Assembly (NCBI GenBank): GCA_963701085.1
Contig: OY969561.1
Span: 128,001 to 192,000 of the forward strand
Direction of reading: 5' to 3'
DNA: 64,000 bases
Source of the DNA: an uncultured bacterium
Lineage (GTDB): Bacteria; Babelota; Babeliae; Babelales; Vermiphilaceae
Shown: positions 5,695 to 34,800 of the stretch, in pieces
Layout of the letters: every line of letters begins with the position of its first letter
How positions within the stretch are numbered: the first letter of the stretch is position 1
Position numbers and translations under genes: made by a program
Notes under the pieces: model-generated
Databases searched by the model: none
Told to the model about the DNA's origin: nothing
The model's input: the letters and a program-made list of their open reading frames with translations, nothing else

Positions 5695-5739
5695 GCGCGC
5701 TCGTCCTGAACTTGTTGAAGGATATCTTCGAGTGCGCTC
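5695..5739. repeat. Palindromic repeat type A, partial (left arm plus core)
   Basis: GCGCGCTCGTCCTGAACTTGTTGAAGGATATCTTCGAGTGCGCTC matches the copy at 18269. Confidence 0.85.
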
Positions 5740-5742
5740 ATT

Positions 5743-6927
5743 TTATTTTATATCATGCTTGGATTCAGGCATTACAATTTTAACTCCTGTTTGTGTGCTA
5801 ACAAATAATTGAGGCTCACCTTCATATTCATCATATGCCATGCAATGTATTATTGGTTCATTAAGTATGCTATTGATGATAAAAGGTTTATCTGTGGTAA
5901 GATCCCATATATTCACCACAGCATCCTTATCTCCGCAGGAGAACAACTGTGTTCCAGCATCATTTTCTTGAATGCATTTTATTGAATTGGTACTTTCAAG
6001 TGTATGTATACTTTCTTGCATATTGCGCATATCCCATATTTTTATTGTTTTATCCCATGATGACGAATAAAACTATCTGTCCTTTTTGCTTTTTGCAAGA
6101 GCAGTTACCGCACGGCCATGAGGGTTAAGAGCATAGATGCATTTCCCTTCACGCATGTCATAGACAAGTATGGGGCCATTGTACAATAGACCACCCATTC
6201 CTCCTGCTGCATATATCATATGAGTATCTGCTAATAATCTCCAAGGAGTTGCGTTGTCATACCTTTGTGGTAATGCTTGTTTGCATGATTGTGTAGTAAC
6301 ATCCCATATTTTTATTTCTCCTTGATTAGCTAAAGAACAAAGATCGCCATGTGGGTTTTCCGATAAGGCACTAAAATAACAACGATCAGGCAATGTACCT
6401 TTGCATTCATGAGAATTTGTATCCCATATTTTAATCATGCTGTCTTTTGCAGCTGTATACACAAATGATCCGTTCTTATTTGCAATTGCACATGTAATTT
6501 TTTGGGCGCGGTCATGACGATCAGTATGGAGAGTATCAATTTTTTTGGTAATAATTGTACCATCTATGGTGTTTGATATATCCCATATATACATGTCATC
6601 ATCAACCATCCCGTATAATTTATGTTTGGTTTTTATGAGAATATGTGGCGATTGTTCTACTTTCCAGTGGTTATGTATAAAAGAACGTTTAACATCATTG
6701 GTAAAATCATCATTCATACATGTACTTATTGTTTCTATGGATTTGAGAGCATTAGTGCGTTGTTCATCATAAGTTTTCCCATAGCCCGTTGTTATTTGGT
6801 GTTTGCATAAGGCATAGAGTGTTGGTATTTTGTTTTTCGCGCTATCTGATGATTTGTCCATTCCATTAGTTGCATATGATGATAGTAATACAATGAAGAG
6901 TGTGAATAATGTGATAGTATGCTTCAT
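5743..6927 (-). pseudogene. Secreted BC-box-like + WD40-repeat protein interrupted by one in-frame TAG (6073-6075)
   Basis: Signal ...TNG|MD; IPTLYALCKHQI; WD40 repeats (IKIWD, VNIWD). The frame continues through TAG as KDR*FYSSSWDKTIKIWDMRN into ORF 5743..6030. Confidence 0.75.
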
Positions 6928-6936
6928 AGTTTTTTT

Positions 6937-7326
6937 TTATTCTTTGTCTGGATAATTAAATGCATTTCCAAAGTGTGCCCGATATGATTTTTTTTGTGTT
7001 TTTGTTGTGTTAGATCTGCTTTGTTTCATTGCTTCATGTTGTTCAAGAAGAGCTTCAGCTTCTTTATTTTTACAAGCAATCGCTTCGCTGAGTATTACTA
7101 ATTTCTTTACTTGTTTCACTTCTTCTTCAGTTGCGTTAGCTTTTTTATGAGCGTCTGTGGGTTGTTGTTGTGGCAAGCAATTAATTTTTTTTGGTATTTG
7201 TATCGTTGTAAAGCGTGTTGTTGTAATGACGTTGCGAGGTGATTTTTTAATGCAGAGCATAGCACACGCTTTTGTTGTAGGTAATAAAGAAATGAATAGT
7301 ATAAGAATATTGTTTTTTATGCGCAT
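6937..7326 (-). CDS. Secreted hypothetical protein
   Basis: Signal ...ACA|ML followed by a basic, Thr-rich segment. Confidence 0.65.
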   Translation of the reverse strand: MRIKNNILILFISLLPTTKACAMLCIKKSPRNVITTTRFTTIQIPKKINCLPQQQPTDAHKKANATEEEVKQVKKLVILSEAIACKNKEAEALLEQHEAMKQSRSNTTKTQKKSYRAHFGNAFNYPDKE

Positions 7327-7355
7327 TGTTTCTTTCTTATATCATTTTAAAATGA

Positions 7356-7751
7356 TTATTGATTATTTAACACATCCAATAAACTGTTTTTATCATAAAA
7401 ATTCGCTTCTAGTTTAATGTAGGCACCATTGTGGCCAATTTTGTGCCAATATTGTGTGTAATTACCTATATAGCCTCGCTTTGCTATTTTATGAGAAGTA
7501 CGTTGTGTTTCTAGCTCATTGATTGTTGTAATAATAAGCTGTGCCAATGGGTCCTTTGATTGAGGATAGATATCCCACGTAATATATTGCGGTTCTATTG
7601 GTTCTTTGATGTGTTGTAAAGCAGTTGATGTGCCAATGCGATTAACTTCGCGTAAAAAAATGTGCTCTTCTATTTCGCTTAAAGATTTATGCATTCCGTG
7701 TGATGTAATAGTAGTGAAAAGTAAACAGAAAAATAGTTGCATATTCTTCAT
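7356..7751 (-). CDS. Secreted hypothetical protein; paralog of 5094..5591
   Basis: Start reassigned to MKNMQLFF (7751); signal ...TSHG|MH; GNYTQYWHK motif. Confidence 0.7.
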   Translation of the reverse strand: MKNMQLFFCLLFTTITSHGMHKSLSEIEEHIFLREVNRIGTSTALQHIKEPIEPQYITWDIYPQSKDPLAQLIITTINELETQRTSHKIAKRGYIGNYTQYWHKIGHNGAYIKLEANFYDKNSLLDVLNNQ

Positions 7752-12705: not shown

Positions 12706-12773
12706 CGCGCTCATTCTGAACTTGTTGAAGAATTAAAGCGCGCTTAACCCTTCAACAAGTTCAGGGTGAGCGC
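12706..12773. repeat. Palindromic repeat type A (both arms)
   Basis: CGCGCTCATTCTGAACTTGTTGAAG...CCCTTCAACAAGTTCAGGGTGAGCGC. Confidence 0.9.
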
Positions 12774-12789
12774 ATTTGGAAAAGTGATA

Positions 12790-13776
12790 ATGGTTAAAGT
12801 GTTTTGTGTAGTTATGTCCCTTCTAGTGCACATGCACGTTTTTGCGCAGCAAGAAATGGTTTCTTGTGCCTCACAATCATTCCATTTGGTTGATAAACAA
12901 CGTAAAGAATTTTATACAGATGATCAAGCGCATCCATGGCGTGAATTAATGGTGCGTGTGTGGTATCCAGCAGATGGTACCGATATACATAAGATATCAG
13001 ATAAGCAACGGTACTACCCGCTGCTTATTTTTTCGCATGGATTGGGCGGTGTATTTAATGGTGATAGTTATGCAACGCTGTGTGAGGCGTGTGTAAAAGC
13101 GGGGTATGTTGTAGCTACAATTTCCCATTCCTATGCATGCAAGCCGGTACAATTTTCTGATGGCCGCATAACAACTCATTCATGGTGGAATGTTGTACCG
13201 GGGTATCTGTCAGGTCGAGAAATGGATGTGTGGGAAGCCGATGTTGAATATGTGCTTAATCAGTGTGAGAAATATACACAGGATGAGCGCTCATTCTTAT
13301 ATAACAAACTTGATTTGAATAGAATTGGCATGTTTGGCCATTCATATGGTGGTGCAGCGGCAGTTCAAATGTGCCGTAAAGATCATCGTATTAAAGCGGC
13401 GATTAATCTGGATGGGCCATTGCGTGGTAATGATGCAACAGCACCATTTAATAAGCCATTACTTTTTATTATTGCGGCACCACTTTCCTATAACAATGCA
13501 TTAATGAAAGATGCAGCAATAGTTAATGATGTTGGTTGGTCACGATGTATGTATTCTCGCGAAATTTCCGTTATTAATGCATTTGCTCAAGCAATGAATA
13601 ATAATGTCTACAAAGTTGTAATAGATGGCATTCGTCATACTACATTTTCTGATGAAATATGTGCGCAACATACACTCTTGGATGATTTTTTGATTGATCC
13701 TTGCGTAGCACATACCATTATCAATTCATATGTAATTGATTTTTTTAATGAGTACTTAAAAGGAATGGAGTTTTGA
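12790..13776 (+). CDS. Secreted alpha/beta hydrolase (PAF-acetylhydrolase/dienelactone hydrolase-like)
   Basis: RELMV.VWYP, PL.IFSHG, GHSYGG nucleophile elbow, INLDG, H.TFSD. Confidence 0.85.
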   Translation: MVKVFCVVMSLLVHMHVFAQQEMVSCASQSFHLVDKQRKEFYTDDQAHPWRELMVRVWYPADGTDIHKISDKQRYYPLLIFSHGLGGVFNGDSYATLCEACVKAGYVVATISHSYACKPVQFSDGRITTHSWWNVVPGYLSGREMDVWEADVEYVLNQCEKYTQDERSFLYNKLDLNRIGMFGHSYGGAAAVQMCRKDHRIKAAINLDGPLRGNDATAPFNKPLLFIIAAPLSYNNALMKDAAIVNDVGWSRCMYSREISVINAFAQAMNNNVYKVVIDGIRHTTFSDEICAQHTLLDDFLIDPCVAHTIINSYVIDFFNEYLKGMEF

Positions 13777-15026
13777 TGAAAATAATTTTTAATGCAGCAC
13801 TTTTTTTGTTTATATCATATAACGCACAATGCATGGATATTACCCATTGCCCAAAAAATAGTAAAGAAGACGAATTTATTATGTGTATGGCGTCGATGCT
13901 GACGGTATGTAATAAGGTATATTCACAAGAAGAGTTTGAGATGTTTTGTCGTCAAAATTGGAACAATAACAAGGCTATGCGTCAAAATTTTAAAAGTTTT
14001 CTTCGTAATCCACAACCCATTACAAGTCATGAGGATGCGGTTGTTGGGAATGAATTTGTGGCGGACATGGTGCCGCATATGATGGTGTTTAATAAACATG
14101 GATGGTCAAAAGGAGATTGTGAGGCGGTTGCACGTCTACTTTGGTACAACGATGTAAAATTTCGTAGGGAATATAAAAAATCGAAACAGACATTGGTCGG
14201 GCATAGAACATTGGACAATCTCTCTGAGCACACACTTAATATAATTGGAGCATTCACCAAAAGATCTGGCAAAGATACGTTACGATGCGTTAATAGAACG
14301 CTTAACCAAAAAATAATATCACAAGATGAGTTGTATGAGCGCTATAATGAAGCAAAGAAATTAATAAATACATATTTTAAAAAAACAGAAATGAATCGAT
14401 TGTTGTGCTACAGCAGATTTACCCCCGAGCTAAAGTATGAAATGCTTGAGGCTATTAAACATAACAATGCTCCATTCATACGATATTTTTTGAGAAAATA
14501 TGATTTTACTAATGTAGATTTGTACCATTACCTTGCAGCTGCCATCAAGAGCGGTAATAGCGCTGATATATTAAAAATGTTAATTGCAGTAGGCGTTATA
14601 AATCGTATTGATCGCAGTAGTGTTACTGTATTGCAGCATGCGGTAATTAAAGGAAAAATAGAGTTGGTTAGGCAGCTTGTTGCGCATCCAGGTGTTGATA
14701 TAAATCAACAAGATGAATGGGGTAGGACTGCTTTGTTTTTGGCTGTAGAAAACATAAAACCGTTTGATCAATTATCATATGATATGATTAAAGTTCTTCT
14801 TGATGCTGGTGCAGATCATGAGATTGCTGCTATTTACAGGGACAGGACTCCGCTTGATATGGCTAATAGAATCGTTGCTCGGAAATCAAAAAAACCGTAT
14901 TGTAAAATGCATGACTGGTCTATTTTTAGAAAAAGGCGAGCTCTTTGTGAGGCTAAATCAGATCCTAAGCTTGTGTATCCTATTCATCTCATTCAACAAG
15001 CGATAGATAAGAAGTGTGGTATTTAA
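13776..15026 (+). CDS. Secreted ankyrin-repeat protein with internal F-box-like segment
   Basis: Signal ...AQC|MD; LDNLSEHTL..I.......LRCVNRTL; ankyrin motifs (DINQQDEWGRTALFLA, LLDAGAD, TPLDMA). Confidence 0.8.
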   Translation: MKIIFNAALFLFISYNAQCMDITHCPKNSKEDEFIMCMASMLTVCNKVYSQEEFEMFCRQNWNNNKAMRQNFKSFLRNPQPITSHEDAVVGNEFVADMVPHMMVFNKHGWSKGDCEAVARLLWYNDVKFRREYKKSKQTLVGHRTLDNLSEHTLNIIGAFTKRSGKDTLRCVNRTLNQKIISQDELYERYNEAKKLINTYFKKTEMNRLLCYSRFTPELKYEMLEAIKHNNAPFIRYFLRKYDFTNVDLYHYLAAAIKSGNSADILKMLIAVGVINRIDRSSVTVLQHAVIKGKIELVRQLVAHPGVDINQQDEWGRTALFLAVENIKPFDQLSYDMIKVLLDAGADHEIAAIYRDRTPLDMANRIVARKSKKPYCKMHDWSIFRKRRALCEAKSDPKLVYPIHLIQQAIDKKCGI

Positions 15027-15826: not shown

Positions 15827-15864
15827 GTGCGCTTTAACCCTTCAACAGGTTCAGGGTGAGCGCG
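15827..15864. repeat. Palindromic repeat type A, right arm only
   Basis: GCGCTTTAACCCTTCAACAGGTTCAGGGTGAGCGCG, near-identical to the 3' half of the 12706 copy. Confidence 0.85.
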
Positions 15865-15876
15865 GGGAAGGATTCG

Positions 15877-18216
15877 TTACAGTCGTTGTACAAATTGTGC
15901 AACGATTTTTTTTACACCAATTTTAAATTTAATCTCCAAATGTATGTCGCCCGATGCCTTTTCTTCAATATCTTGAATTGTGCCGATACCATATTTTGCA
16001 TGCTTTACTGGCTGATTTTTTTTCCACACTGATGTGCTTTGTGTTTTTATTTCTGGTATAGCAGCATGTTGTTTTTTTGCACCCTTCGATACACCCCTAC
16101 CGGGGCACTCAGGGCGAGCGGTTTTAGAGAATTTGTTTGTTGATATATCATTAGAAAAAGAGGGCCTGCCCGCCGAAGCCTCGGCGAAGGAGGGAATATA
16201 GATATCAGAGGTTTTTTGAAGTTTTTCACCGAACCAGTCCGCACAAAATTGATGCACTTGTGCGACGCTCCAGTATGAGCAATCTTCCAGTGGTATCAGA
16301 TGTGGCGGTATTTCATGTAAAAAGCGTGAAGGTAATTGATCAATCATTTGTCCGTATGAATAACGGTGTTTTGTGTAAGAAATAAGCAGATGTTCTTTGG
16401 CACGTGTTATTCCTACATAAAACAGTCTTCGTTCTTCTTCAAGTGCATCATTAGAATTAAGGGAGCGTGTTGTTGGGATGATGCCTTCTTCAACTCCTGG
16501 TAAAATCACTAAATCAAATTCTAAACCTTTTGCGGCATGGAGAGTCATAAGAGAAACCGCATGTGTATCTCTGTTTTGTTTGCTCATTTTGTCTTGCATG
16601 AGTGCAACTTCATCAAGAAAAGCGGTAATGGTTGTGATGTTATTTGTCTCGAAGTGTTTTACCGCGTCTAATAGTTCTTTAATGTTGTCTAAGCGCGCCT
16701 GTGCTTCTTGTGGTTCATCATTGTTTTTTATGTAGCTAAGATAGCTTGCACGCACAATAATTTCTTCAAGAGCTTTACTTGGTAGCGTTGTTGGTTCAAG
16801 GCCTTTGAGGATTCCAGCAAAGCTAATGAGAGTTTCTGTTTTTGCTCTGCCCAGGCTACCGTCTGCCATACATTGTTTAATAATATCGCGCCATGTTGCA
16901 AATGGTTCATTGGCCCATCGTGTGTAAAAGTCACTTTCGAATTTATCGCCCAGTCCGCGCGTAGGAACATTAATGATTCGGAAAAAAGAGGTTCTATCAA
17001 AGGGGTTGGCGATAATTTTAAGATACGCGAGTAAGTCTTTAATCTCTTTGCGTTCATAAAATTGAATACCACCAATAATGCGATAAGGAATGGAATCTTT
17101 GAGTAGTGCTTCTTCCAGTGCGCGTGATTGTGTATGTGTGCGGTATAATATGCCAACGTTATTGAGACCATATTTGGACTTTGCAACCAACAATAATTGT
17201 GCAATTGCGCGTGCTTCTTGATACTCAGTGAGGCAGAGAAGTTTTTGTATTCTGTTATTTCCTTTTTTTTCTGACCACAATGTTTTAGGTGTTCGGCAGC
17301 TGTTGTTTTGTATGGTGTGATTTGCGATGGTCAGTATCGGTTGTACAGAACGATAATTTTGTTCAATCGTGATGATGGTGGTGCCAGGGAAGACTTTTTT
17401 AAAGTTTGCCATGTTGGTCACTGTTGCACCTCGCCACGAATAAATTGACTGATCCTCATCGCCTACAGCGCAGACAGAATCTATTGCGAGAGTATCATCA
17501 ATTAGTGACATTGCTTTAAGGAGTTCATGCTGGACTACGTTGGTGTCTTGGTACTCATCAACCAAGATGTGGCGAACTTTTTCTTGAAACCTATTTTTTA
17601 TAACATTGTTTTTTTGAAATAGGCGCAATGTTTCTAGTAATAGGTCATCAAAATCAAGTGCTTTTGAGGCTTTTTTTTCTGTTTCATACGCATTAAAAAT
17701 ATCGGTAAGCATTGGGTGCGTTAAATGTTCCGTTGCTGGGTGTGATGGATCAACGGTATGATTTTTCATCTGAGAAATCTGATACGCCGTATTTTTTGGC
17801 GTGAACTGTTTTTGCAATCCATTGCGCTGTAAAATTGCCTGAAGCATTTTTTGTTGATCATCGCTATCTAAAATTGAAAAAAATGGATTGATCAGATGTT
17901 CCTGATGTTTTTTCAGTAATTGTACACAATAGGAATGGAATGTACCGATAAACGGAAGATCGGTACGATCGCCTAAAAAAGATGCAATGCGTTCACGCAT
18001 TTCAGTTGCAGCTTTGTTGGTAAAAGTAAGCGCCACGATTGATGATGCAGCAACACCTTTGTTTAACATTAAGTGGGTAATGCGCGCGGTGATAACACGT
18101 GTTTTTCCTGAGCCGGCGCCAGCTACAACAAGGACTGATCCTGCTTCATGGTGTACAGCTTGTTTTTGAGCATTGTTGAGATTGTTTTGTAGAAAATTAT
18201 TAAAAGAGTCGCGCAT
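15877..18216 (-). CDS. pcrA: UvrD/PcrA superfamily 1 DNA helicase with C-terminal Tudor-like domain
   Basis: AGAGSGKT, TFTNKAA, VDEYQD, QNYRS, TLHAAKGLEF, EERRLFYVGITRA; C-terminal V.H.KYG.GT. Confidence 0.95.
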   Translation of the reverse strand: MRDSFNNFLQNNLNNAQKQAVHHEAGSVLVVAGAGSGKTRVITARITHLMLNKGVAASSIVALTFTNKAATEMRERIASFLGDRTDLPFIGTFHSYCVQLLKKHQEHLINPFFSILDSDDQQKMLQAILQRNGLQKQFTPKNTAYQISQMKNHTVDPSHPATEHLTHPMLTDIFNAYETEKKASKALDFDDLLLETLRLFQKNNVIKNRFQEKVRHILVDEYQDTNVVQHELLKAMSLIDDTLAIDSVCAVGDEDQSIYSWRGATVTNMANFKKVFPGTTIITIEQNYRSVQPILTIANHTIQNNSCRTPKTLWSEKKGNNRIQKLLCLTEYQEARAIAQLLLVAKSKYGLNNVGILYRTHTQSRALEEALLKDSIPYRIIGGIQFYERKEIKDLLAYLKIIANPFDRTSFFRIINVPTRGLGDKFESDFYTRWANEPFATWRDIIKQCMADGSLGRAKTETLISFAGILKGLEPTTLPSKALEEIIVRASYLSYIKNNDEPQEAQARLDNIKELLDAVKHFETNNITTITAFLDEVALMQDKMSKQNRDTHAVSLMTLHAAKGLEFDLVILPGVEEGIIPTTRSLNSNDALEEERRLFYVGITRAKEHLLISYTKHRYSYGQMIDQLPSRFLHEIPPHLIPLEDCSYWSVAQVHQFCADWFGEKLQKTSDIYIPSFAEASAGRPSFSNDISTNKFSKTARPECPGRGVSKGAKKQHAAIPEIKTQSTSVWKKNQPVKHAKYGIGTIQDIEEKASGDIHLEIKFKIGVKKIVAQFVQRL
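16082..16121. repeat. Palindromic repeat type B inside pcrA (encodes ARPECPGRGVSKG)
   Basis: CCCTTCGATAC-ACCCCTACCGGGGC-ACTCAGGGCGAGCGG; near-identical to the intergenic copy at 29814. Confidence 0.9.
16165..16194. repeat. Palindromic repeat type C inside pcrA (encodes PSFAEASAGR)
   Basis: CCTGCCCGCCGAAGCCTCGGCGAAGGAGGG, 30 nt. Confidence 0.9.
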
Positions 18217-18268: not shown

Positions 18269-18344
18269 GCGCTCGTCCTGAACTTGTTGAAGGATGTCTT
18301 CGAGCGCTCGAGGAAAACCCTTCAACAGGTTCAGGGCGAGCGCG
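18269..18344. repeat. Palindromic repeat type A (complete)
   Basis: GCGCTCGTCCTGAACTTGTTGAAGG-core with CGAGCGCTCG-CCCTTCAACAGGTTCAGGGCGAGCGC. Confidence 0.95.
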
Positions 18345-18385: not shown

Positions 18386-18428
18386 CCCTTCGATACTTTT
18401 TTGAAACAAAAAAACTCAGGGCGAGCGG
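18386..18428. repeat. Palindromic repeat type B
   Basis: CCCTTCGATAC-TTTTTTG AAA CAAAAAA-ACTCAGGGCGAGCGG. Confidence 0.9.
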
Positions 18429-18919: not shown

Positions 18920-19084
18920 GATTCTCCTTAATTAATCACGTAACCTTTTTTCTGTGTTAGTCGTACAAAAAATTAAAAATAAAGTAAAGCGGAGAGCGAT
19001 CTATAAATTTTTATATTGATATTTTTGGTATATCGATATAGAGTATGGCGGTGAAATATCAATTCTTAAAAAAAAGGTTTTCTC

Positions 19085-19567: not shown

Positions 19568-19587
19568 TTTTATAGTGATGTGATGTA

Positions 19588-19617
19588 AAGAGAGGTTGTA
19601 AAAAGCCTCTCTTTTTT
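19588..19617 (+). terminator. Intrinsic terminator
   Basis: AAAGAGAGGTT...AGCCTCTCTTTTTT. Confidence 0.7.
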
Positions 19618-19646
19618 TGATCTATTTTATAAAAAAGGATTTTTTA

Positions 19647-20861: not shown

Positions 20862-21425
20862 ATGAGTTTTTTAGGGACAATGTATCGAGTTTTAGTCGTT
20901 TTGGCGGTAGTGTTTGTGAGTAATACAAGAGCAGTAGAGCTGCGCAATTGCGCCAAACCAGTGTTTATGGGTGTAGGGTCTGTTCTGATTAATGAGAAGA
21001 AAGCTACTGAGTTATTTGGTGAAGAATATATTTCTGCTCGTAAGCAGGTTATTATCGGTAAGGCTGTTGCAGGAGCATTGGCTAATACAAGTAGTGATTC
21101 TTTGGCTACATTTCGTATTATTATTAAAGGTGAAGATGGCCTTGAAATTGAAAATTGGTTTGCTAAAGAAACTAGAGATAGAGTTACCGTAGTAGAAAAC
21201 TCTGCAATTGTAGGATATGTTGCTGTTAATGGTGCCTTACGATTTGGAGGCGATTATTTTTCTTTTGATGAAAAATTTATTGATAAAAAATGCGATGAGT
21301 ATTTGCCAGAGAATGTAGCATGGGTTGCCAAACCAGTAGCGACTTTTATTGTTGATCTTGCGTATGATTATGTCACTGTTCAATTGGTAAAAGGTTTTAT
21401 AGGTGGTAGTAATAAGGCAGATTAA
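20862..21425 (+). CDS. Secreted protein, tandem paralog 4 of 4
   Basis: Leader nearly identical to that at 20256; KKCDEYLPE...KPV motif. Confidence 0.7.
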   Translation: MSFLGTMYRVLVVLAVVFVSNTRAVELRNCAKPVFMGVGSVLINEKKATELFGEEYISARKQVIIGKAVAGALANTSSDSLATFRIIIKGEDGLEIENWFAKETRDRVTVVENSAIVGYVAVNGALRFGGDYFSFDEKFIDKKCDEYLPENVAWVAKPVATFIVDLAYDYVTVQLVKGFIGGSNKAD

Positions 21426-21485: not shown

Positions 21486-22964
21486 TTATTGTTTGCTAAC
21501 AAGTTCTTGTAGTGCAATGCGCACATTTTCCATAACACCATCATAATCGAATGGTTTTTGTTGTTTAAAAATGCGTAATCCTGGATACCAGTATGAATCA
21601 GTGCGGTGGCAGATCCAGCGCCAATCAGCGGTAGCATACGGATGCAGTAGCCATACTTGTGTACCAAGTCCGCCAGCAAGATGTGTCATTGCGGTATCAA
21701 CCGTGATGACCAAATCAAGATTTTTAATCAGTGCTGCCGTATCCATAAACGGTCCTGATTGTTCATCAAAATTATCAAAAACGTGGAGCTGAAAATCTGA
21801 TGGTAATGTGCTTAGTTGTTCAACGCCATCATATTTTTGCAAATTATAAAAACTAACGCCATCAATTGTGCTCAGGGGTGCAAAGTTTTGTAGTGGAACT
21901 CCGCGGCGAGCAATAGGCAACTTTGATGGAATGTCATTATGGAGATCTGCTTGCCAACAGATGCCAACTTTAAAATTGGTGTCAGTGGCAAGTTGTTGTT
22001 TCCAATAGGCAACAAGTGCTGGGTCTGCAAAAAGATACGGAATATTGTGTGGTACGGTAGTATCATTATCGCCGAAAATTGCGGGTAAACTCATGAGTGT
22101 TGCATCAGCGTTATATTCTGGTAGCGCTGCGCCGCATGGGATCAGTTGGTCAATATAGTTGCAGCGAGAAAGCAGTGGTATGAGTGGTTTTTGACATGCA
22201 ACAATAACATCCGCACCCATATTTTTTAAACATTCTGCATAGCGTACAAAATTGAGTGTGTCACCAAGGCCACCTTCGGGGCGTAACAGAATTTTTTTAT
22301 ATGATACTGCATCGTCATGCAACAGTTGGCGTAATGCATCACCATTTTTCCCGCTTTGTGTAAGATAGCGGCTGTGCTGCTTCCATCCATTTTCAAAATC
22401 TCCCTTGGTAATGTAGGCAAAACCAAGACCAAGTTGTGCTGCTTGATATTCGGGATTTGTTTGAATGATCTGTTGATAGAGTTCAATTGCGGTATCGATA
22501 TCACCTATTGTTTTATAGGTGAATGCTTTGTTATAGCGTGCTGGTAATGCTTGTGGGTTGAGGGTGATGGTAGCATCAAATGCGGCGATCGCTTTTTCTC
22601 CTTGACCAATAGCAAGATAGCAACAACCAAGATTGAATAGTGCTGAGATGTTGTATGGTTCGTTATGTATTATTTCTTCATAGCAAGAAATTGCATCAGC
22701 GAACTGTTCATTTTTTTGATATTCCATTCCTGTTTCAAGGGATGGGATTGCGTGGATGTGGATGTGAATAAGCACAGTGTCGTTATTATTCTCGCGCTCG
22801 CCCTGAACTTGTTGAAGGGTTTCTTTGAGCGCTCGAAGACATCCTTCAAGCCGTCCTTCGCCGAGGCTTCGGAGGCCAGGCGGGTGTTTACTGCTGAGCA
22901 ATGTCGAAGCATCAGGACGAGCGGAGGAGAAAATACAAAAAAGTTTGATATTATTTTTTTTCAT
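21486..22964 (-). CDS. TPR-repeat glycosyltransferase family 9-like protein with repeat-derived N-terminal insert
   Basis: TPR repeats; EGGLGD..FVRY, KVGICWQ, F.DTAA....LDLVITVDT...HLAG.LG, DWRW, WYP..R.F.Q. Confidence 0.85.
   Translation of the reverse strand: MKKNNIKLFCIFSSARPDASTLLSSKHPPGLRSLGEGRLEGCLRALKETLQQVQGERENNNDTVLIHIHIHAIPSLETGMEYQKNEQFADAISCYEEIIHNEPYNISALFNLGCCYLAIGQGEKAIAAFDATITLNPQALPARYNKAFTYKTIGDIDTAIELYQQIIQTNPEYQAAQLGLGFAYITKGDFENGWKQHSRYLTQSGKNGDALRQLLHDDAVSYKKILLRPEGGLGDTLNFVRYAECLKNMGADVIVACQKPLIPLLSRCNYIDQLIPCGAALPEYNADATLMSLPAIFGDNDTTVPHNIPYLFADPALVAYWKQQLATDTNFKVGICWQADLHNDIPSKLPIARRGVPLQNFAPLSTIDGVSFYNLQKYDGVEQLSTLPSDFQLHVFDNFDEQSGPFMDTAALIKNLDLVITVDTAMTHLAGGLGTQVWLLHPYATADWRWICHRTDSYWYPGLRIFKQQKPFDYDGVMENVRIALQELVSKQ
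22793..22924. repeat. Composite repeat: type A with type C (22850-22880) and type D (22886-22911) nested in its right arm, inside a CDS
   Basis: TCCTTCAA|C insert|CGGGT|D insert|TCAGGACGAGCGG; about 132 nt; host ORF stays open. Confidence 0.9.
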
Positions 22965-24835
22965 TATTTTTCCCTATATGTTTTGCGAGTTCAACAGCAA
23001 CTTCTTTAATCATAGATTGCCAATCACCTGGCGTAGGTTGTTTGAATAGGCGAGTGATGTTTGGATACCATGGAGAATCATTGCGATCTATCATCCAGCG
23101 CCAATCAGCAGGGTTCGGGAGCATAATCCATGTTGGTGTGCCAAGCCCACTTGCAAGATGGCTGATTGATGTATCAACCGTGATAATAAGATCGAGATTT
23201 TTTATTACCGCAGCAGTATCCATAAAACGACCATTGCTCTGATCAAAATCACCATCAAACGTGATAATGCGCATGCCTTCTGGTAAATCCTTAAGTTGAT
23301 CGGTGCCGGTTGTTTTTTGCAGGCTGTAAACAGTTACGCCGGGAACGTTGCAAATAGGTGCAAACTCTTTTGGATGTACTGATTTTTGGGCAACGGTTGC
23401 GCGTAATAATGGTGTTGCATAGTTATCATTTCCTTGCCAACAGATGCCAATTTTAAAGTTTTTATCCGCGGATAATTTTTGTTTCCAATCAGCTACTAAT
23501 TTTTCATCAGCATAAAGGTATGGAATTTCACAGGGAACAGTATCAAGGCGTGTTTTCAGAACATACGGTAATGATAACAATGGTGAATGAACATCAAAGT
23601 GTGGGGGGGTGTCATCGAGTGAAATCACTTGATCGATATGTTTGCAACGTTTCATGAGGGTGACGAGTGGTTTTTGTACTGCAGCAATAACAATGCCATT
23701 TTTTTCTTTGATCAATTTCGCGTAACGAATAAATTGAAACGTATCGCCAAGCCCTTGTTCTGCGTGAATTAAAATTGTTTTGCCTTGTAAATCTGATCCA
23801 TCCCAGCGTGGTTCAGAGTAGCTGCGCAATGATCCTTGAGAAGGGCGGTCTGTAGCGCCATTCATATCCATGCCATCCGCGTTCAAAATCGCCGATTACA
23901 AGATACGCAAGGCCGCGACTAAAGAGTGCCTCTGCATGGTTGGGATTAAGCTCGAGTACTTTATTATAGTAAGGGAGTGCTTGATCCAAGTAACCAAATT
24001 TTTTGTAAGTGAATGCAATGTTGTATAAAATTGATGGATTGTTTGGTAGTTGACGGTTAAGATCTTGGTATATTGCGAGTGATTCATCAAGTCTGTTGAC
24101 GGTGTTATAAACATTAGCAAGTTCAAAGGTTAAGTTGATATGGCCTGGTTCAAGGGTAAGCCCATCAGTAATAATATTAAGTGCTTGATTAAAAAGATGT
24201 TTATCATTGTAAACGCGTGCAAGTAATAGACGCGTGTCAGGGTCATTGGGGTTAAGAATGAGTGCTTGTTTAAATGGTTCAATTGCATCGCCTGCTTGTT
24301 TGACATCCGTCATTACTTTGCCAATTTGAATGTATGCACGATAGTGATCTTTTTTATGCTGAATTGTTTTTTTATACGCATATAACGCCTCAGAATATTT
24401 TTTTGCATAATAGAGTGCTTGACCAAGATTGAAAAATATCTGTGCGCAGGTGGGATTTAATGCAAGTGCTTGTTTGTAAAATGCAATTGCTTCATCATAC
24501 TGTTCTGCGGTAAAAAGGCCATTTGCATGTTTGCTGAGTGCTTCAAAAGATTGGTAGTCGATATATGAGTGTGGTTGTGGTTTTTTGAGATAATTTTCTA
24601 TTGCGGTAAACGTAACTTGTTTGTTTGCATTGCAAAGGGATGTAGTGAGTAGTAGAAGGATTACCCTTCGATACATTCTCCTGTGGAGAACACTCAGGGC
24701 GAGCGGGAAGAGAAATATATTATTCTTAAGGATTGCGGTAAATTCTAGCCCGCTCGTCCTGAGTGCCACCGTAGGTGGTGTATCGAAGGATGGTGCGGAA
24801 GAAAAACGTAGAATAGTTTGTTTAGTTGTATTCAT
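22951..24835 (-). CDS. TPR-repeat glycosyltransferase family 9-like protein, split by a 1-nt frameshift near 23850
   Basis: TPR repeats to GWHGYEWRY (ORF 23813..24835), then WDGSDL.GK.I...EQGLGD (ORF 22951..23886). Confidence 0.85.
24664..24790. repeat. Two type B repeats in inverted orientation (24664-24707, 24749-24790) inside the 5' end of a CDS
   Basis: CCCTTCGATAC-ATTCTCC TGT GGAGAAC-ACTCAGGGCGAGCGGG and a reverse copy with a CCACC/GGTGG inner stem. Confidence 0.9.
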
Positions 24836-24965: not shown

Positions 24966-25226
24966 ATGAAAAAAGAAACAAAATACGTAAAAATAGATTC
25001 CCGTAATCGTATTACCATACCAAAAAAGCTATCTGAGGGCATGTCTCATCTGTATGAGATATATGAGAAAGATGGGAAGATTATTCTTGAGCCAGTTTAT
25101 GAGGTTCCTAAAGAAGAAAAATGGTTGTTTGATCCTAAAAATAGGGCAATCGTTGATGAACTTAAGGCAGCACTCAAAGAAAAGGCTCACATAAGAATAG
25201 ATTTAAGCCAATTTGAAGAAGAATAA
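24966..25226 (+). CDS. AbrB/MazE/SpoVT-like antitoxin
   Basis: KIDSRNRITIPK...GKIILEP swapped-hairpin pattern; precedes a toxin-like gene. Confidence 0.8.
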   Translation: MKKETKYVKIDSRNRITIPKKLSEGMSHLYEIYEKDGKIILEPVYEVPKEEKWLFDPKNRAIVDELKAALKEKAHIRIDLSQFEEE

Positions 25227-25229
25227 TTA

Positions 25230-25526
25230 ATGACTTTTATATTGGAATATTCGGACACAGCGGCGAGACATTTTATGAGTCTCAAGGCTGATTCTTCGAA
25301 ACATAGAATTTTCAAGGACGTTGTTAAAGCTTTGCGGTACATGGAAAGTAATTTGCGGCATCCATCTTTAAACACTCATGAATACCATACTCTTAAAGGT
25401 CCTGGCGGTGAAAAGGTATTTGAGTCATATGCCCAACAAAAAACGCCTGGAGCATATCGAATATTTTGGCACTATGGTCCTGGTAAAAATATCATTTCAA
25501 TATTAGCAATTATACCTCATCCTTAA
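25230..25526 (+). CDS. RelE/ParE-superfamily toxin
   Basis: HPSL.TH, FESY, AYRIFWHY, I.AI.PHP; 3 nt downstream of the antitoxin. Confidence 0.75.
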   Translation: MTFILEYSDTAARHFMSLKADSSKHRIFKDVVKALRYMESNLRHPSLNTHEYHTLKGPGGEKVFESYAQQKTPGAYRIFWHYGPGKNIISILAIIPHP

Positions 25527-25573: not shown

Positions 25574-25621
25574 AAAAAAAGTGTTGTATAGTACTTGCAA
25601 GTACTATACAACACTTTTTTT
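25574..25621. terminator. Perfect 48-bp palindrome between convergent genes (bidirectional terminator)
   Basis: A7-GTGTTGTATAGTACTTG|CAAGTACTATACAACAC-T7. Confidence 0.7.
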
Positions 25622-25633: not shown

Positions 25634-26743
25634 TTACAGTTCGCTTGGCGTCCACTTATTAATATATTCAACAAGAGGCGCAATGCTTTTTTTTGTAAGG
25701 GATGAAACAACAACGTGTGGCTCGTATTGTTCAATGGCTCCCGCTAAAAGCGTTGTATCAATTTTGTCGGCCTTGTTAAATACATAGAGTATTGGTGTTT
25801 CAATATTGAGGTCTTCAAGGATGTCGTTAACAACATGGATATGGTTTCGCCAGCCTGTATCGGCAATATCAACAACATGTAATAATAAATCAGCATAATG
25901 TAATTCTGAAAGTGTTGATTTAAATGCGTCAATTAATCGTGGAGGGAGTTGTTGAATAAATCCAACGGTATCAGAAATGGTACCCTTTTTTGTGCCATGA
26001 ATAAACAGTGAGCGTGTTGTTGTATCAAGGGTTGCAAACAGTTTATCTTCCGCCAAAACATTACTGTTGGTCAGTATGTTTAATATGGTTGATTTACCCG
26101 CGTTGGTATATCCAATAAGACAGACATTGGGCTCATTGTTGTTCAAGCGTTGTTTGCGGCGTGTTTCGCGCGCACTGTGCATTTTTGCAAGATGTCTTTT
26201 GATTTGTAAAATACCATCTTCAATATGACGGGTTTCTTTTTCTTTTGCCGTTTCACCAAAGCCGCCACGAACACCAATGGCGCCACATTGTTGGCCAAAA
26301 TGGATACCGCGACCAGAAAGGCGTGATTTTTTATGCTGTAGTTGAGCGATGGCAACTTGGAGCTTACCTTCTGCGGTATGAGCTGATTTTTCGAAAATTT
26401 CTAAAATAAGTTCAGTTCTATCAAAAATGTTACAATCAAATAATTCTCCCAAATTGCCGGCTTGGCGTGAAGAAAGAGGTTCAGATATAATTACCTGCTC
26501 AATTCCGTTTTCATCGCAAAATAACTTAATTTCATCTCGTTTACCCTTGGTTAAAAAATAACCAGGATCAATGGTACGAATTTTTATATTAAGCTCTTCA
26601 GCATCACGGACACCATTGGTGCGTGCTAAGTTACGAAATTCTTCAAAATAGGATTCCGTATTAGCAACATGATTTTGTGGCGATTGTACGCCCAGAAGGA
26701 GGGTTTTTGGGTAGACTACCGTAGAGGTTGCTTGTCTTTTCAT
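25634..26743 (-). CDS. hflX: GTPase HflX
   Basis: DRTELILEIF, GYTNAGKST, LFATLDTT, DTVGFI, NKAD. Confidence 0.95.
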   Translation of the reverse strand: MKRQATSTVVYPKTLLLGVQSPQNHVANTESYFEEFRNLARTNGVRDAEELNIKIRTIDPGYFLTKGKRDEIKLFCDENGIEQVIISEPLSSRQAGNLGELFDCNIFDRTELILEIFEKSAHTAEGKLQVAIAQLQHKKSRLSGRGIHFGQQCGAIGVRGGFGETAKEKETRHIEDGILQIKRHLAKMHSARETRRKQRLNNNEPNVCLIGYTNAGKSTILNILTNSNVLAEDKLFATLDTTTRSLFIHGTKKGTISDTVGFIQQLPPRLIDAFKSTLSELHYADLLLHVVDIADTGWRNHIHVVNDILEDLNIETPILYVFNKADKIDTTLLAGAIEQYEPHVVVSSLTKKSIAPLVEYINKWTPSEL

Positions 26744-26809
26744 GATTTTTTGCCTTATTTAAAAAAAGTGCTGCGCACTTTTCATCGTATTAAGCTTGTA
26801 TGTGTTTCC

Positions 26810-26954
26810 CGCGCTCGCCCTGACCCTTCGGCAAGCTCAGGAGTAAACACCTGCCTTGAGAACTTGCAGTGCCTGCCGAAGCCTTGGCGAAGGCAGGTTG
26901 AAGGGTTTCTTAGAGCGCTCGAAGAGATCCTTCAACAGGTTCAGGACGAGCGCG
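26810..26954. repeat. Composite repeat: type A with type D (26824-26848) and a type C-containing insert (26854-26897) nested in its left arm
   Basis: CCCTGA|D|ACCTG|insert with C|TTGAAGGG-core-CCTTCAACAGGTTCAGGACGAGCGCG. Confidence 0.9.
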
Positions 26955-26981
26955 AAAAGGCAAGAATGATCGGGTTGTCTA

Positions 26982-27727
26982 TATTCTTCTTTGTAATTAT
27001 AGCATAAGTATCAAAAAAATGTAGCGAGGGAACCATGAAAGTGGATTTGTTGATTAGCCAATATAGTTTTTAAGCAATTCTATAATTTTATTATAGTTGA
27101 CTATCGCTAACATAGTTAGGGCTAAGGCAATAATTGAAAATTTCATTGATTGCTGTTTTTGTGATTGTTGTTTCTGTTCCAATTTCTTTAAATATTCTCC
27201 AGGTGTTGCTTCATTTATTGATTGTCGGTAATGTTTCAAAAACTCATGATCTGTTAATTTTTGATTTTTCCAATAAGGTATATTGTCTAGAAGTGGAAGG
27301 AATGATTGATTTTTTTCTATAACGAGCATTTTAATGGCTTCCATATCCTCTATCATTGTACCACTCATTACTCTTATCTGTGTATAGTCAATAAAGTCAG
27401 ATAAAATGTCGTTTCTCATGGTAGGATATCCTTGAGTATTCATTAAGACTTTTGCACGATTTAAGCTACAACTAGTTTGATTTTTGATATATTTTACATA
27501 CTCAGTTATTTCCTTGGCATTCTTGGAATTTATTAGTTCATCAATATACTCATTGGTTGTTTTAAGGGAATCGTTTCTAATGCTCAGGTGCGGATTAAAT
27601 GGCTTGATTTGGTTTTCAGATGCTATAGTGATAAATCCTATATTTATTGTCAATAGAGCGATAAGATAATAATAGTTCATAAAATCCTCATTGTTAATTT
27701 TGATTATTCTTCTTTGTAATTATAGCA
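26982..27727. repeat. Perfect 23-bp direct repeat (26982-27004 and 27705-27727) flanking an orphan gene
   Basis: TATTCTTCTTTGTAATTATAGCA twice; its reverse complement begins TGCTATAAT (extended -10). Confidence 0.9.
27054..27680 (-). CDS. Secreted or membrane-anchored hypothetical protein
   Basis: N-terminal signal, C-terminal TM segment, GAGGA RBS. Confidence 0.7.
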   Translation of the reverse strand: MNYYYLIALLTINIGFITIASENQIKPFNPHLSIRNDSLKTTNEYIDELINSKNAKEITEYVKYIKNQTSCSLNRAKVLMNTQGYPTMRNDILSDFIDYTQIRVMSGTMIEDMEAIKMLVIEKNQSFLPLLDNIPYWKNQKLTDHEFLKHYRQSINEATPGEYLKKLEQKQQSQKQQSMKFSIIALALTMLAIVNYNKIIELLKNYIG

Positions 27728-29813: not shown

Positions 29814-29852
29814 TCCTTCGATACACCCCTACGGGGCACTCAGGATGAGCGC
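29814..29852. repeat. Palindromic repeat type B
   Basis: TCCTTCGATAC-ACCCC TAC GGGGC-ACTCAGGATGAGCGC. Confidence 0.9.
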
Positions 29853-32564: not shown

Positions 32565-32578
32565 ATGTGTAGTTCCTT

Positions 32579-32878
32579 TTATTCTCTATTTCTTGCTCGT
32601 GCAGCACGTCTTTCTTCGCGTCGAGCTTCACGCTCGTTTCTTCTCTCTTCTCTTCTTTCTCTTCCACCAAATAATCCGCCAACAACACCAGTAGTAACAT
32701 CAGCCGCACCTTCAACAGTACGTTCGGCCGCATAACCAGTATCTTCAACAACATCGCCTACATTGTAACCTGGTCTAATTCCGTGATGGTAAACACCAGC
32801 TTCATCATACCAACCAGCAGATACAGCCGAAACAGTTGCTATAGCAACGAATAATGCGATTAGTTTTTTGTTCATCAT
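32579..32878 (-). CDS. Small secreted protein with Arg/Glu-rich tail
   Basis: Signal ...VSA; RREERRNEREARREERR. Confidence 0.7.
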   Translation of the reverse strand: MMNKKLIALFVAIATVSAVSAGWYDEAGVYHHGIRPGYNVGDVVEDTGYAAERTVEGAADVTTGVVGGLFGGRERREERRNEREARREERRAARARNRE

Positions 32879-32904
32879 GAGTGGACTCCTTCAATTAATA
32901 CGGT

Positions 32905-33219
32905 TTATGAATTCTTCAATCTTCGATCTTCTTTTTTTCTTTGAATCTTTTCTTGTTTCTCTTGATATTTTCTTTGAGATTCTCTTCTTTGGTCTTCTCT
33001 TTTTTGTTGAGCTTTTCTCTCTTTATCTTTTAATTCGCGAGACGCTTCTTTTCGCGCCTGCGTGTCTTGTGGCTCATCGGAAAATCTACCGAGAGTTGCG
33101 ACATCAAGAGCTTCTGTAACAATATCTTCATGCCAGTTGCCGTATTGGTCATAGTACGCAGATGCAACTGAGACACCTGCGAGGGCAATGAGAACAATAA
33201 GACTATTGATATTCTTCAT
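32905..33219 (-). CDS. Small secreted protein with charged tail
   Basis: AAGGAG RBS; signal ...ASA; YDxxGxWH motif shared with its neighbour. Confidence 0.7.
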   Translation of the reverse strand: MKNINSLIVLIALAGVSVASAYYDQYGNWHEDIVTEALDVATLGRFSDEPQDTQARKEASRELKDKERKAQQKREDQRRESQRKYQEKQEKIQRKKEDRRLKNS

Positions 33220-33345
33220 GTACTATCTCCTTTATTTATAGAGTATTTTGTATTCTCTTTTATAATACAGATAGAAATATAACAATAGCAATAGTTTAAT
33301 TGTTTTTTTTTAAAAAAATATTAAATGAGCGATTGGATCGTCTTT

Positions 33346-34800
33346 TTACTCAGCAATTTTGTGGGCGATAAGATGCATTTTTCCTGCTCCAAGGAATAAA
33401 ATAAGGTCATTTTTGGCGGCAGATCGTTCTATTGCCTGTTTTATTTGCGTGAAATCATCTTCAAATGGGACATATTGAATAATAAAGGGGGGGTTGAGGG
33501 CTGTCAGTTCTTGTACAAACCGTTCGCTGGTGATTGTTGGGATGGGATACTCTCCGGCGGAGTAAATATCGGTAAAAATGAGGGTGTCGATAGCGCTTGT
33601 GGCAAAGGTGGTGAGAAAATCATTCCATAATTTTTGGGTACGAGTGTAGCGGTGTGGCTGAAATACCACGATGAGTTTATTATGTGCTCGTTTACGAGCG
33701 ACCTTCAGTGTATATTCAATTTCTTTTGGATGATGACCATAGTCATCAAAGATTTCAGCGCCTTTGTAGGTGCCATGGAATGAAAATCGTCGCTCAACAC
33801 CACCAAAAGTGGCTAAGCTCTTTGCAATTATTTCAAAAGAGATTTCAAGTTCTTGCGCAAGTGCAATTGCTGCTAATGCATTATAAACGTTATGCAAGCC
33901 GGGCATTGGTAGCATGATAGTGCCAAGCGGGGTGAGATTATTTTTTGTGTGTACGGTAAACAGTGAGTGATCAGCGTTGAGAATGATATCCTGTGCATAA
34001 AAATCTGCGTGCCTGTCCGCCCCTTCGACGGAGCTCAGGATAAACTCCGCTTTAGCGAAGGAGGATTCTATGCCGTATGATATTGTTTTAACATGGTCAA
34101 GGGGCATGAGCGAGCGTATGTTTTCGTCATCAATACATACAATTGCTTTGCCATCAACAGGAAGATTGTTAAGGAATTGTTTAAAACATTGTTTGATATC
34201 ATCTAAGTCAGTGTATGTTTCCAGGTGTTCCAAATCAATATTGGTGATGACTGCAAGCGTTGCATGTAGTTGTAAAAAAGAGCGATCACTTTCATCAGCT
34301 TCAGCGACCAAAAAATCACCTTTGCCCATGCGAGCGTTAGATGAAAGATTTTTTAATTGTCCGCCAATGACAACAGTCGGATCCATTTTTGCTTCAATTA
34401 AGATGTGGGAGATGAGAGAGGTTGTTGTTGTTTTTCCATGCGATCCAGCAATTGCTATGCTATATTTTGTGCGCATAAGTTCCGCGAGCATGCATGCGCG
34501 GGAAATTGTTGGAATGCCACGCGCTTGAGCTTGTGCAATTTCCGCCGTTACTGCCGGAATTGTGGTGGCATACATGGGGATGTAGACAAGGGTATCAATG
34601 GTTGCATCATTACACTCAATTGAGTTGTTGCCTTTATATACCGTGCAATCGAGACTTCTCAGCTGCGCAACGGTATCCTGCTCAGTATCAGGATCACATC
34701 CAGAAATGGTGTAACCACTTTGCTTTAAGATGGTGGCTATACCACTCATTCCTATTCCGCCAATACCAACAAAATGAATGTGTGATTTTTTTGTATACAT
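33346..34800 (-). CDS. murC: UDP-N-acetylmuramate--L-alanine ligase with 18-aa repeat-derived insert
   Basis: IHFVGIGGIGMSG, GSHGKTTT, EADESD.SF, DDYGHHP.E, FQPHRYTRT. Confidence 0.95.
   Translation of the reverse strand: MYTKKSHIHFVGIGGIGMSGIATILKQSGYTISGCDPDTEQDTVAQLRSLDCTVYKGNNSIECNDATIDTLVYIPMYATTIPAVTAEIAQAQARGIPTISRACMLAELMRTKYSIAIAGSHGKTTTTSLISHILIEAKMDPTVVIGGQLKNLSSNARMGKGDFLVAEADESDRSFLQLHATLAVITNIDLEHLETYTDLDDIKQCFKQFLNNLPVDGKAIVCIDDENIRSLMPLDHVKTISYGIESSFAKAEFILSSVEGADRHADFYAQDIILNADHSLFTVHTKNNLTPLGTIMLPMPGLHNVYNALAAIALAQELEISFEIIAKSLATFGGVERRFSFHGTYKGAEIFDDYGHHPKEIEYTLKVARKRAHNKLIVVFQPHRYTRTQKLWNDFLTTFATSAIDTLIFTDIYSAGEYPIPTITSERFVQELTALNPPFIIQYVPFEDDFTQIKQAIERSAAKNDLILFLGAGKMHLIAHKIAE
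34012..34065. repeat. Type C repeat with a nested type D repeat, in frame in murC
   Basis: CCTGTCCGCC[CCTTCGACGGAGCTCAGGATAAACTCC]GCTTTAGCGAAGGAGGA = 54 nt = SSFAKAEFILSSVEGADR. Confidence 0.9.

Follow-up and report, generated by a model that had tools for sequence, protein, structure and literature searches.

The stretch analysed here, called the window, comprises 64,000 nucleotides of contig OY969561.1 (genome positions 128001-192000) from an uncultured bacterium of the Vermiphilaceae (Babelota; assembly GCA_963701085.1). The genome that holds it is a single contig of 1,198,634 bp with 37% G+C and a completeness of 92.6%. The window carries ankyrin, WD40 and TPR genes beside housekeeping genes and, confined to the region between 5.7 and 34.1 kb, a set of short G+C-rich palindromic repeats. 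An initial annotation of the window counted about 19 of these units, sorted them into four types (A to D) and proposed that they form a non-autonomous mobile family. The analysis described below indicates that the repeats are probably about 19 orphan hairpins cognate to several small GIY-YIG nucleases, which resemble the Ssn nucleases and whose genes lie elsewhere in the same genome.

The 12-nt string that joins the tag and the stem of the repeat, TCAGGRYGAGCG, has 14 exact matches in the window, against a mean of 0.00 and a maximum of 0 in 100 dinucleotide-preserving shuffles, and the units counted initially are thus real. A family member was located at every position given for them, with the exception of a supposedly degenerate copy at 31217, which matched no pattern. 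Nothing was found past 34,065, in agreement with the reported lack of copies in the ribosomal cluster at 44-64 kb. The arms of type A and their inverted partners were also recovered independently in the window by a repeat finder. A genome-wide count showed that copies occur well outside the window. The tag is present at 271 sites with at most one mismatch, and pattern searches returned 188 units by a strict definition and 231 units, in 145 clusters, by a looser one. The commonest G+C-rich 11-mers of the genome are themselves members of this hairpin family. By a crude longest-ORF call (ORF, open reading frame), 129 of the 188 strict units are intergenic, though intergenic sequence makes up only about 12% of the genome, and 14 of the 145 clusters are intragenic by a margin of at least 30 codons from either ORF end.

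The four types had been presented as four elements. They are rather arrangements of one tagged hairpin unit, with type C as a cousin hairpin. The plan of the unit is 5'-CGYTC-stem-GA-G-CYTGT-C-GA-stem, that is, the tag CG(C/T)TC is followed by a covarying stem of 5 bp, which encloses a GA/GA internal loop and, beyond a closing pair of G-C or A-T, the loop CYTGT. At 126 of the 271 tag sites a contiguous 24-nt box is found, CCTTC(A/G)ACA(A/G)G(T/C)TCAGGRYGAGCG, and the CTTC...TCAG core and the CGAGCG tail noted earlier as common to several types are the two halves of this box. Written from the complementary strand, the unit is 5'-(G/C)CGCTC, R-Y-C-C-T, GA, R, CYTGT, Y, GA, A-G-G-R-T. The position that follows the tag is paired with the one that follows AGG, and the combinations GC/GT, GT/AT, AT/AT and AC/GT account for 157 of the 188 units. 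Among these 157 the outermost pair is G.T in 115 and A-T in 42, and therefore it is a legal pair on the tag strand only. Moreover, across the 188 units the G.T wobbles and the A/G variation are restricted to the tag strand.

Type A consists of two short units in inverted orientation, with their tags outward and a central palindrome joining them. Type B is a unit with a second hairpin in its loop; the inner stems are unrelated in sequence, and all of them pair. Type D is a unit tagged GTTTAC, and TGTTTA stands at the tag position in 7 of the 188 units. Type C, a small hairpin in its own right, follows the same plan (stem, GAA, GC, four-base loop, GC, GAA, stem). Two composites of about 140 nt, at 22794-22924 and 26811-26953, are mutual reverse complements, and each is a type A element with a D unit and a C hairpin in the loop of one arm. 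Folded as DNA, the type A doublet at 18269-18343 reaches -31.4 kcal/mol (z -9.5).

Units in other phyla follow the general form CG(T/C)TCG, a stem of variable sequence, TGAGCYTGTCGAA and the complement of that stem. In 54 such partner units, whose stems were not selected by the pattern, the four variable pairs show 8, 20, 13 and 16 double changes. Their covariation score was 0.393, compared with 0.153 after shuffling (0 of 500 shuffles reached the observed value) and at most 0.149 with the partner slid. A hammerhead or kink-turn reading of the GA/GA loop was considered and dropped, as the hammerhead core does not fit when judged from the sequence only.

An all-against-all comparison of the 1139 ORFs of the genome returned a dispersed four-member family of proteins of about 100 amino acids (genome positions 231631-231942, 339150-339440, 1091357-1091704 and 1102879-1103169). 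Each of the four genes lies between two inward-reading units. Two of the proteins, one from each of the clades A and B, were scanned against Pfam and matched GIY-YIG with E values of 7.6e-18 and 1.6e-17 (64-65 bits); weaker matches to T5orf172 and MEDS fell over the same stretch, and no second domain was present. A scan of the genome for PF01541 gave 6 matches, five of them small genes (56.6-66.5 bits; cut-off 22.6) and one a longer frame. The fifth small gene, at about 843858-844109, has C hairpins on both sides. The small GIY-YIG ORFs are 84-115 amino acids long, and the catalytic-type residues Y8, Y18, G20, R28, H32 and E66 do not vary among 16 sequences drawn from two phyla. The closest solved structures by sequence are the UPF0213 proteins 1zg2 (1.5e-13) and 1ywl (3.9e-11), followed by SLX1, and an NCBIfam scan of the nuclease gave nothing above cut-off.

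The association of gene and hairpin was also seen in an unbiased scan. A plus-strand unit within 130 nt upstream together with a minus-strand unit within 130 nt downstream was found for 6 of the 1139 ORFs, four of which are GIY-YIG genes; the opposite geometry was found for 5 of the 1139. When four gene copies were aligned with 260-nt flanks, their similarity was bounded by the units. The GIY-YIG element is about 430 bp long, and its two ends of about 39 nt, joined at GAGCGC|GCTC, give the type A palindrome. Three of the GIY-YIG genes are flanked by short units, one by type B units and one by C hairpins. The nuclease clades parallel these hairpin types, with identities of 72-77% among the A copies, 54-57% for B compared with A, and 25-31% for C compared with the rest. 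The check proposed initially, for GIY-YIG genes flanked by the repeats, was thus positive elsewhere in the genome, and the window itself holds none. The statement that the window lacks a transposase likewise held, and whole-genome domain searches found no Y1 (PF01797), rve, DDE_Tnp_1, TnpB zinc ribbon or IS110; integrases, serine recombinases and other families were not part of these searches. Carriage of the nuclease by phages was considered and set aside, as just 2 relatives occur in viral contigs.

The initial annotation had allowed that similar repeats may already be known, and the association of such a nuclease with hairpins is in fact already in print. In the available part of their paper, Chenal et al. 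2025 (PMC11893778) describe Ssn as single-domain GIY-YIG nucleases of about 94 amino acids (cd10448), whose genes are flanked by NTS or, more loosely, SRM hairpin repeats that are also scattered in hundreds of copies. In single-stranded DNA, four purified Ssn homologs bound their hairpin on one strand and made a cut upstream of the hairpin; they left double-stranded DNA and RNA untouched. The authors liken the arrangement to insertion sequence (IS) elements and to RAYT/REP, leave its role outside Neisseria open and, since SsnA and NTS modulate transformation of N. meningitidis, propose domestication (PMC11893778).

The two systems share several features. A small single-domain GIY-YIG gene lies between inverted hairpins of 20-50 nt in both cases, hundreds of further hairpin copies are scattered, and the hairpin is oriented, with a conserved upstream tag. 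In both there are many nuclease/hairpin pairs with specificities of their own, predicted ones in the present case; the systems are enriched in symbionts and have been likened to IS elements. The nuclease found here is 34% identical (E 1e-10) to that of L154, a Chloroflexota homolog flanked by near-exact NTS copies. The differences lie first in the hairpin, which here has CG(C/T)TC and a TGA-G-CYTGT-C-GAA core, whereas the published one has CGTC plus ATTCCCGC...GCGGGAAT; the hairpin class described here is not covered by the published motif. The strings TGTCGAA, TTCGACA and CGTTCG are missing from the ten text supplements of PMC11893778, as far as these were available. Furthermore, three pairs co-reside here in one small genome, and 14 of 145 clusters are intragenic, 8 of them confirmed as in frame, compared with 2% of NTS inside genes in N. 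meningitidis. The sole Dependentiae genome in the published survey is given, in the same available text, as lacking NTS, SRM and SsnA (PMC11893778).

The CGTC-tagged palindromic repeats of Di Nocera et al. 2013 (PMC3733652) likewise form a hairpin superfamily defined by a short 5' tag, and CGTC is also the start of NTS (PMC11893778). The tag here is CGYTC, and GTCGAA, TTCGAC, CGTTCG and CGAACG do not occur in the available main text of PMC3733652. Literature searches with the peptide strings of the repeats and with 12-14-nt motif strings gave unrelated matches only (the motifs judged by title), and those on Dependentiae repeats gave nothing relevant. [quoted passage not shown] The available text of Dunin-Horkawicz 2006 does not contain the terms 'palindrom', 'flank' or 'inverted repeat'.

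The association recurs beyond this genome. The exact 24-nt box was found at no fewer than 126 loci of named genomes, and the matches listed include Chloroflexota, Sphingomonadales, Burkholderiales, Methylococcales, Acidobacteriota, Elusimicrobia and others. The 13-nt core of the unit is present in 69-372 copies in genomes G041-G044. Among relatives of the window genome, 18 of 30 loci with a homolog of the small GIY-YIG gene are bracketed by units, and at three further loci the bracket consists of inverted repeats of variant form, in one case 169 nt long and matching the composite of the window. In Sphingomonadales 6 of 12 loci are fully bracketed and 2 are bracketed on one side; the remaining 4 have other hairpins, with a CGTTCG-like motif in their flanking inverted-repeat arms. 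One locus in Chloroflexota carries a bracketed small GIY-YIG gene. Of 80 loci in metagenomes 73 were evaluable, and at 39 of these the unit stands on either side of the gene; a flanking inverted repeat with a score of at least 16 was found at 53 of the 73, compared with 0 when the flanks were shuffled. Hairpin types cluster on a tree of 107 nuclease homologs, which was built from a short alignment and has many open forks and kin that share labels: 13 changes suffice, whereas shuffled labels need 23.9 on average and never fewer than 19.

Other observations concern the same genomes. In G043 and G044 (both Chloroflexota, reached through loci L020 and L033) the core units stand in long one-strand runs, unlike the even orientation in the window genome; G043 has about 25 consecutive plus-strand matches and G044 has alternating blocks. 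Other small GIY-YIG genes of Chloroflexota and Sphingomonas (L154, L166, L159, L208, L210) are flanked by different palindromes, which are near-exact NTS copies at L154, of the CCCCGGCGAAAGCCGGGG type at L166, and of the TCGAGCGAAGTCGAGA type at L208 and L210. Several nuclease/hairpin pairs can therefore share one genome. The record behind L125, deposited as a metagenome-assembled genome of an uncultured Pseudomonadota, matches the coordinates of G008, and its database label may be wrong; the genome reached through it (G045) is the same as G008 and was counted as same-genus, not as another phylum.

The distribution of the repeats among relatives was evaluated by scanning 41 genomes of the same genus, of other genera of the family and of other families of the order for the 24-nt box. 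A reversed-pattern control gave 0 matches in all 41. Within the genus, the box has 20 to 121 matches in 9 of 10 other genomes and none in the remaining one; it is also present in 7 of 14 further genera of the family and in 2 of 16 further families of the order. Units and gene occur together in 13 of the 41 relatives, units only in 6, the gene only in 5 and neither in 17.

Comparison of sites showed turnover. Over the syntenic 36-40 kb, about 19 units in the window genome compare with 1 in G005, 5 in G006 and 0 in G001. Genome-wide, 63 intergenic clusters could be evaluated against G006, a genome of the same genus (flanking genes matched and syntenic; 68 could not), and 59 of the sites are empty and 4 filled. 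Furthermore, a 623-nt contig from a lake metagenome (X4 record 29; a single contig with a depth of about 5) is identical to 22412-22754 and differs from 22966-23193 at 1 position, and in it 52 other letters replace the 211 nt that hold the composite element. Other junction contigs, with sides of 20-38 letters that join different repeat copies, were not used as evidence. None of the sequencing runs listed as containing this DNA is an RNA run. The expectation that sister genomes would have empty orthologous sites was confirmed by these data and by the intragenic sites described next, and the comparison with G006 together with the near-identical strain bears out the proposal of a non-autonomous family, with copies that come and go and that contribute peptide segments. 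The filled and empty alignments at element sites fall in diverged sequence. Three gene blocks that adjoin repeat elements are missing in the syntenic stretches of G005, G006 and G001: a hydrolase and an ankyrin protein (12766-15026), two small ORFs (24966-25526) and a 208-residue ORF (27054-27680).

Four coding sequences of the window had been said to carry copies in frame. Two of these cases are solid. The UvrD protein has 12 extra residues at its type B copy relative to the G006 ortholog, and the Mur ligase gene has a net in-frame insert of 51 nt (17 codons) that is missing in G005, G006, G001 and G013. The other two are TPR ORFs that align to three sister genomes from residues 50-71 onward, with the repeat-coded start unmatched; judging by these alignments, the first ~50-70 residues look like false N-terminal extensions. 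ORF 26669-27007 (112 residues) is made almost wholly of composite repeat, has no family match and is probably spurious, not a gene. The repeat family accounts in this way for annotation artefacts in the window. Genome-wide, four proteins carry the same segment encoded by type A. Of the 14 intragenic clusters 10 could be evaluated and 4 could not; 8 of the 10 coincide with a gap of 9-44 residues in the G006 ortholog, and 2 have no such gap, one of them being a false pattern match. Rickettsia palindromic elements behave similarly, as palindromes of a small intracellular-type genome that lie in frame in conserved genes and add peptide segments. They belong to a different lineage and are likened to the present repeats by behaviour, apart from sequence. 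To our knowledge, no flanked nuclease gene accompanies them.

The elements of the window are collected in the table.

Table. Hairpin elements of the window (positions are window coordinates).
Position	Strand	Element	Context	Relatives
5697..5738 (unit 5705)	+	Single short unit, half of a type A doublet, GCGCTC tag	Intergenic	
12707..12773 (units 12715, 12749)	.	Type A doublet, tags outward	Intergenic, downstream of pyrophosphatase gene	
15839..15863	-	Single short unit	Between methyltransferase and uvrD genes	G006 filled; G005, G001 empty
16083..16121	-	Type B long-loop unit	In frame in UvrD ORF, UvrD_C/tudor linker	12-residue gap in G006 ortholog
16165..16195 (hairpin 16175)	.	C hairpin	Inside UvrD ORF	
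18269..18343 (units 18277, 18319)	.	Type A doublet, best-preserved copy, equal to GIY-YIG element ends joined at GAGCGC|GCTC		
18387..18428	-	Type B long-loop unit, AT-rich inner stem	Intergenic	
22794..22924	.	Composite: tagged short unit (22802), central palindrome, C hairpin (22855), D-type unit (near 22893; tag GTTTAC), terminal inverted tag	Overlaps dubious N-terminus of ORF 21486-22964	
24665..24789	24665-24706 -; 24750-24789 +	Two type B long-loop units, tail to tail (plus-strand unit 24758)	Overlaps dubious N-terminus of ORF 23813-24835	
26811..26953	.	Composite, reverse complement of the 22794-22924 arrangement; short units 26825, 26929, C hairpin 26878		
29815..29852	-	Type B long-loop unit	Between rpsP and trmD	
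34012..34065	-	D-type unit (near 34020) and half C hairpin	In Mur ligase ORF, within Mur_ligase_M domain	

Several other features of the window were recorded. A perfect palindrome of 48 nt (24 + 24, without spacer) lies at 25574-25621, just after ORFs 24966-25226 (a weak MazE-like match) and 25230-25526. At 19058-21425 there are 3-4 tandem paralogous small genes with a common promoter-to-signal-peptide region (D1, D2; 64-89% identity). The neighbouring genes at 21486-23886 have 70-80% identical segments at a spacing of 1477-1483 nt (D5, D9, D15, D19), a tandem duplication of a Glyco_transf_9-like part. A run of GAT/GAA codons with a 9-nt period at 39720-39788 encodes an acidic Asp/Glu stretch. 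The minus strand at 16369-16458, inside uvrD, gives a sub-threshold Rfam match to RF03531 (38.4 vs 65.2 bits), a Clostridioides small RNA 'included into helicase gene', and the match most likely reflects conserved helicase coding sequence.

A mechanism can be proposed by homology to Ssn. Each nuclease clade would recognise its own tagged hairpin in single-stranded DNA and nick just 5' of it, and the strand-specific wobble pairs would fit such one-strand recognition. By analogy with the tested enzymes, we infer that the nucleases found here cut the hairpins that flank them. Type A corresponds to both ends of a nuclease element that lacks its gene, and type C is the hairpin of the third nuclease clade. 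Cutting by the nuclease plus host repair may then spread the gene-less hairpins much as an IS spreads together with its MITEs. Three results lead to this suggestion: gene-bearing and gene-less forms share their ends, sites and copy numbers vary between congeners, and none of the transposases searched for was found. Bacterial MITEs are similarly short and non-coding, share terminal inverted repeats with a gene-bearing element and look like internal deletions of it; the present repeats differ in that the partner is no known transposase and the inverted repeats are themselves structured hairpins.

A number of observations weigh against this interpretation. By nearest-neighbour energies single units fold no better than shuffles (z -0.4 to -2.95), and the structural case for the unit therefore rests on covariation. 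The published SRM pattern has 0 matches in the genome (1-4 in five shuffled genomes) and in 0 of the 231 units, and the NTS consensus has 0; membership in the Ssn group is thus argued from the architecture and from a modest similarity of the proteins. Hydrolysis of DNA by GIY-YIG enzymes involves no covalent intermediate, so that they cannot perform strand transfer themselves. The units show no bias towards either replication strand (103 lagging vs 85 leading) and none with respect to transcription (42 sense vs 44 antisense between co-directional genes), whereas single-strand elements of the IS200/IS605 type are strand-biased. No target-site duplication was seen; the flanks on the tag side are T- and C-rich and were read as an extension of the inverted repeat. 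Some unit-rich genomes have no flanked small GIY-YIG gene (G005 with 37 box matches and 0 gene matches, G042 with 372 core copies and G044 with 69), and five relatives have the gene and zero box matches. Finally, the crude calling of the gene set weakens the intragenic and intergenic counts, and the relatives used in the genome comparisons are kin and thus non-independent samples.

A wider reading can be put forward tentatively, and we regard it as possible but doubtful. The hairpins and Ssn-like nucleases might constitute a truly mobile, IS/MITE-like system driven by a GIY-YIG single-strand nuclease, which spreads a 13-nt core and CGYTC tag from Dependentiae to Chloroflexota and Proteobacteria and writes peptide segments into housekeeping genes. 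We know of no recognised insertion-sequence family whose driving enzyme is a GIY-YIG single-strand nuclease.

The possibility was considered that the GIY-YIG genes are homing-type parasites of older palindromes, in which the nuclease cuts an empty doublet and repair from a gene-bearing copy inserts the gene between the two arms, the hairpins themselves having spread in some other way. This is the main alternative, and we consider it unlikely. It would explain why the gene always lies exactly between two inverted arms, with type A as the precise 'empty' form, why the 6 nt GAGCGC stand on both sides of the gene segment, and why several unit-rich genomes lack the gene; moreover, GIY-YIG enzymes are classic homing endonucleases, according to the available part of PMC1564403. 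However, a homing cut must fall at the centre, whereas the conserved tag is at the outer end of the arm. In addition, the protein is a bare catalytic domain without a DNA-binding extension, and the relatives that have been tested cleave upstream of the hairpin in single-stranded DNA and spare double-stranded DNA, as reported in the available text of PMC11893778.

Somewhat less likely still is a domesticated host system, in which the nuclease and hairpin together control the fate of single-stranded DNA in recombination, uptake or repair, and changes in copy number are a by-product of recombination. The modulation of transformation by SsnA and NTS in N. meningitidis (PMC11893778, as far as available) is a precedent for this explanation, and several element sites border the blocks that sister genomes lack (12766-15026, 24966-25526 and 27054-27680). 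However, the eight in-frame intragenic clusters at gaps of the G006 orthologs are hardly a useful placement for a host function. Five nuclease genes in three clades within a 1.2-Mb genome look selfish and hardly regulated, and a copy number that ranges from 0 to 124 within one genus also looks selfish.

It is very improbable that the units are RNA elements, such as small RNAs, mRNA stabilisers or terminators, and are conserved as such. The GA/GA internal loop and the CYUG-type loops do resemble RNA motifs, and the nearest Rfam entry, RF02901 (AaHKsRNA41, Aggregatibacter small RNA 41), has a consensus that holds two inverted copies of GCUGAGCUUGCCGAAGC with the same loop core. However, no Rfam family matches the window at the gathering threshold, and matches elsewhere are sub-threshold only: units from other phyla score 18-34 bits against RF02901, whose gathering score is 97, and the window region gives no match to it. 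RF02901 is, moreover, an entry for one small RNA and not for a repeat family. The even orientation of the units relative to transcription also argues against a role as RNA, and the tested Ssn enzymes leave RNA alone, according to the available text of PMC11893778.

The REP/BIME and REPIN-RAYT systems resemble the present one in that a single small nuclease gene lies between two inverted tagged hairpins and hundreds of orphan hairpins, often inverted doublets, are accompanied by recognition of the hairpin in single-stranded DNA; they differ in having an HUH tyrosine transposase and a GTAG tag, where a hydrolytic GIY-YIG enzyme, a CGYTC tag and no Y1 gene are found here. The link to RAYT transposases drawn in the initial annotation did not hold, and a classical REP/BIME system whose RAYT (Y1 HUH) transposase was lost or missed is the least probable of the explanations: it would account for high-copy extragenic imperfect palindromes of alternating orientation with a conserved 5' tag, but PF01797 is missing from this genome (a single contig, 92.6% complete) in a search that was positive in 6 of 14 reference genomes as a control, no unit lies within 1.5 kb of any of 6 Y1 loci in three genomes from other phyla that carry units, and the tag is CGYTC, not GTAG.

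If the window repeats are, as we consider likely, orphan hairpins of Ssn-like nucleases, they add to the NTS and SRM repeats a second class of hairpins, distinct in sequence and very widespread, and the Ssn-type system would extend to a Dependentiae-like endosymbiont lineage. The comparative, empty-site evidence for gain and loss of hairpins at the scale of species and strains outside Neisseria goes beyond the 2025 paper, as do the evidence that gene-less doublets are the ends of the nuclease element and the finding that copies can lie in frame within essential genes. The three co-resident nuclease/hairpin pairs are candidates for new single-strand cleavage specificities.

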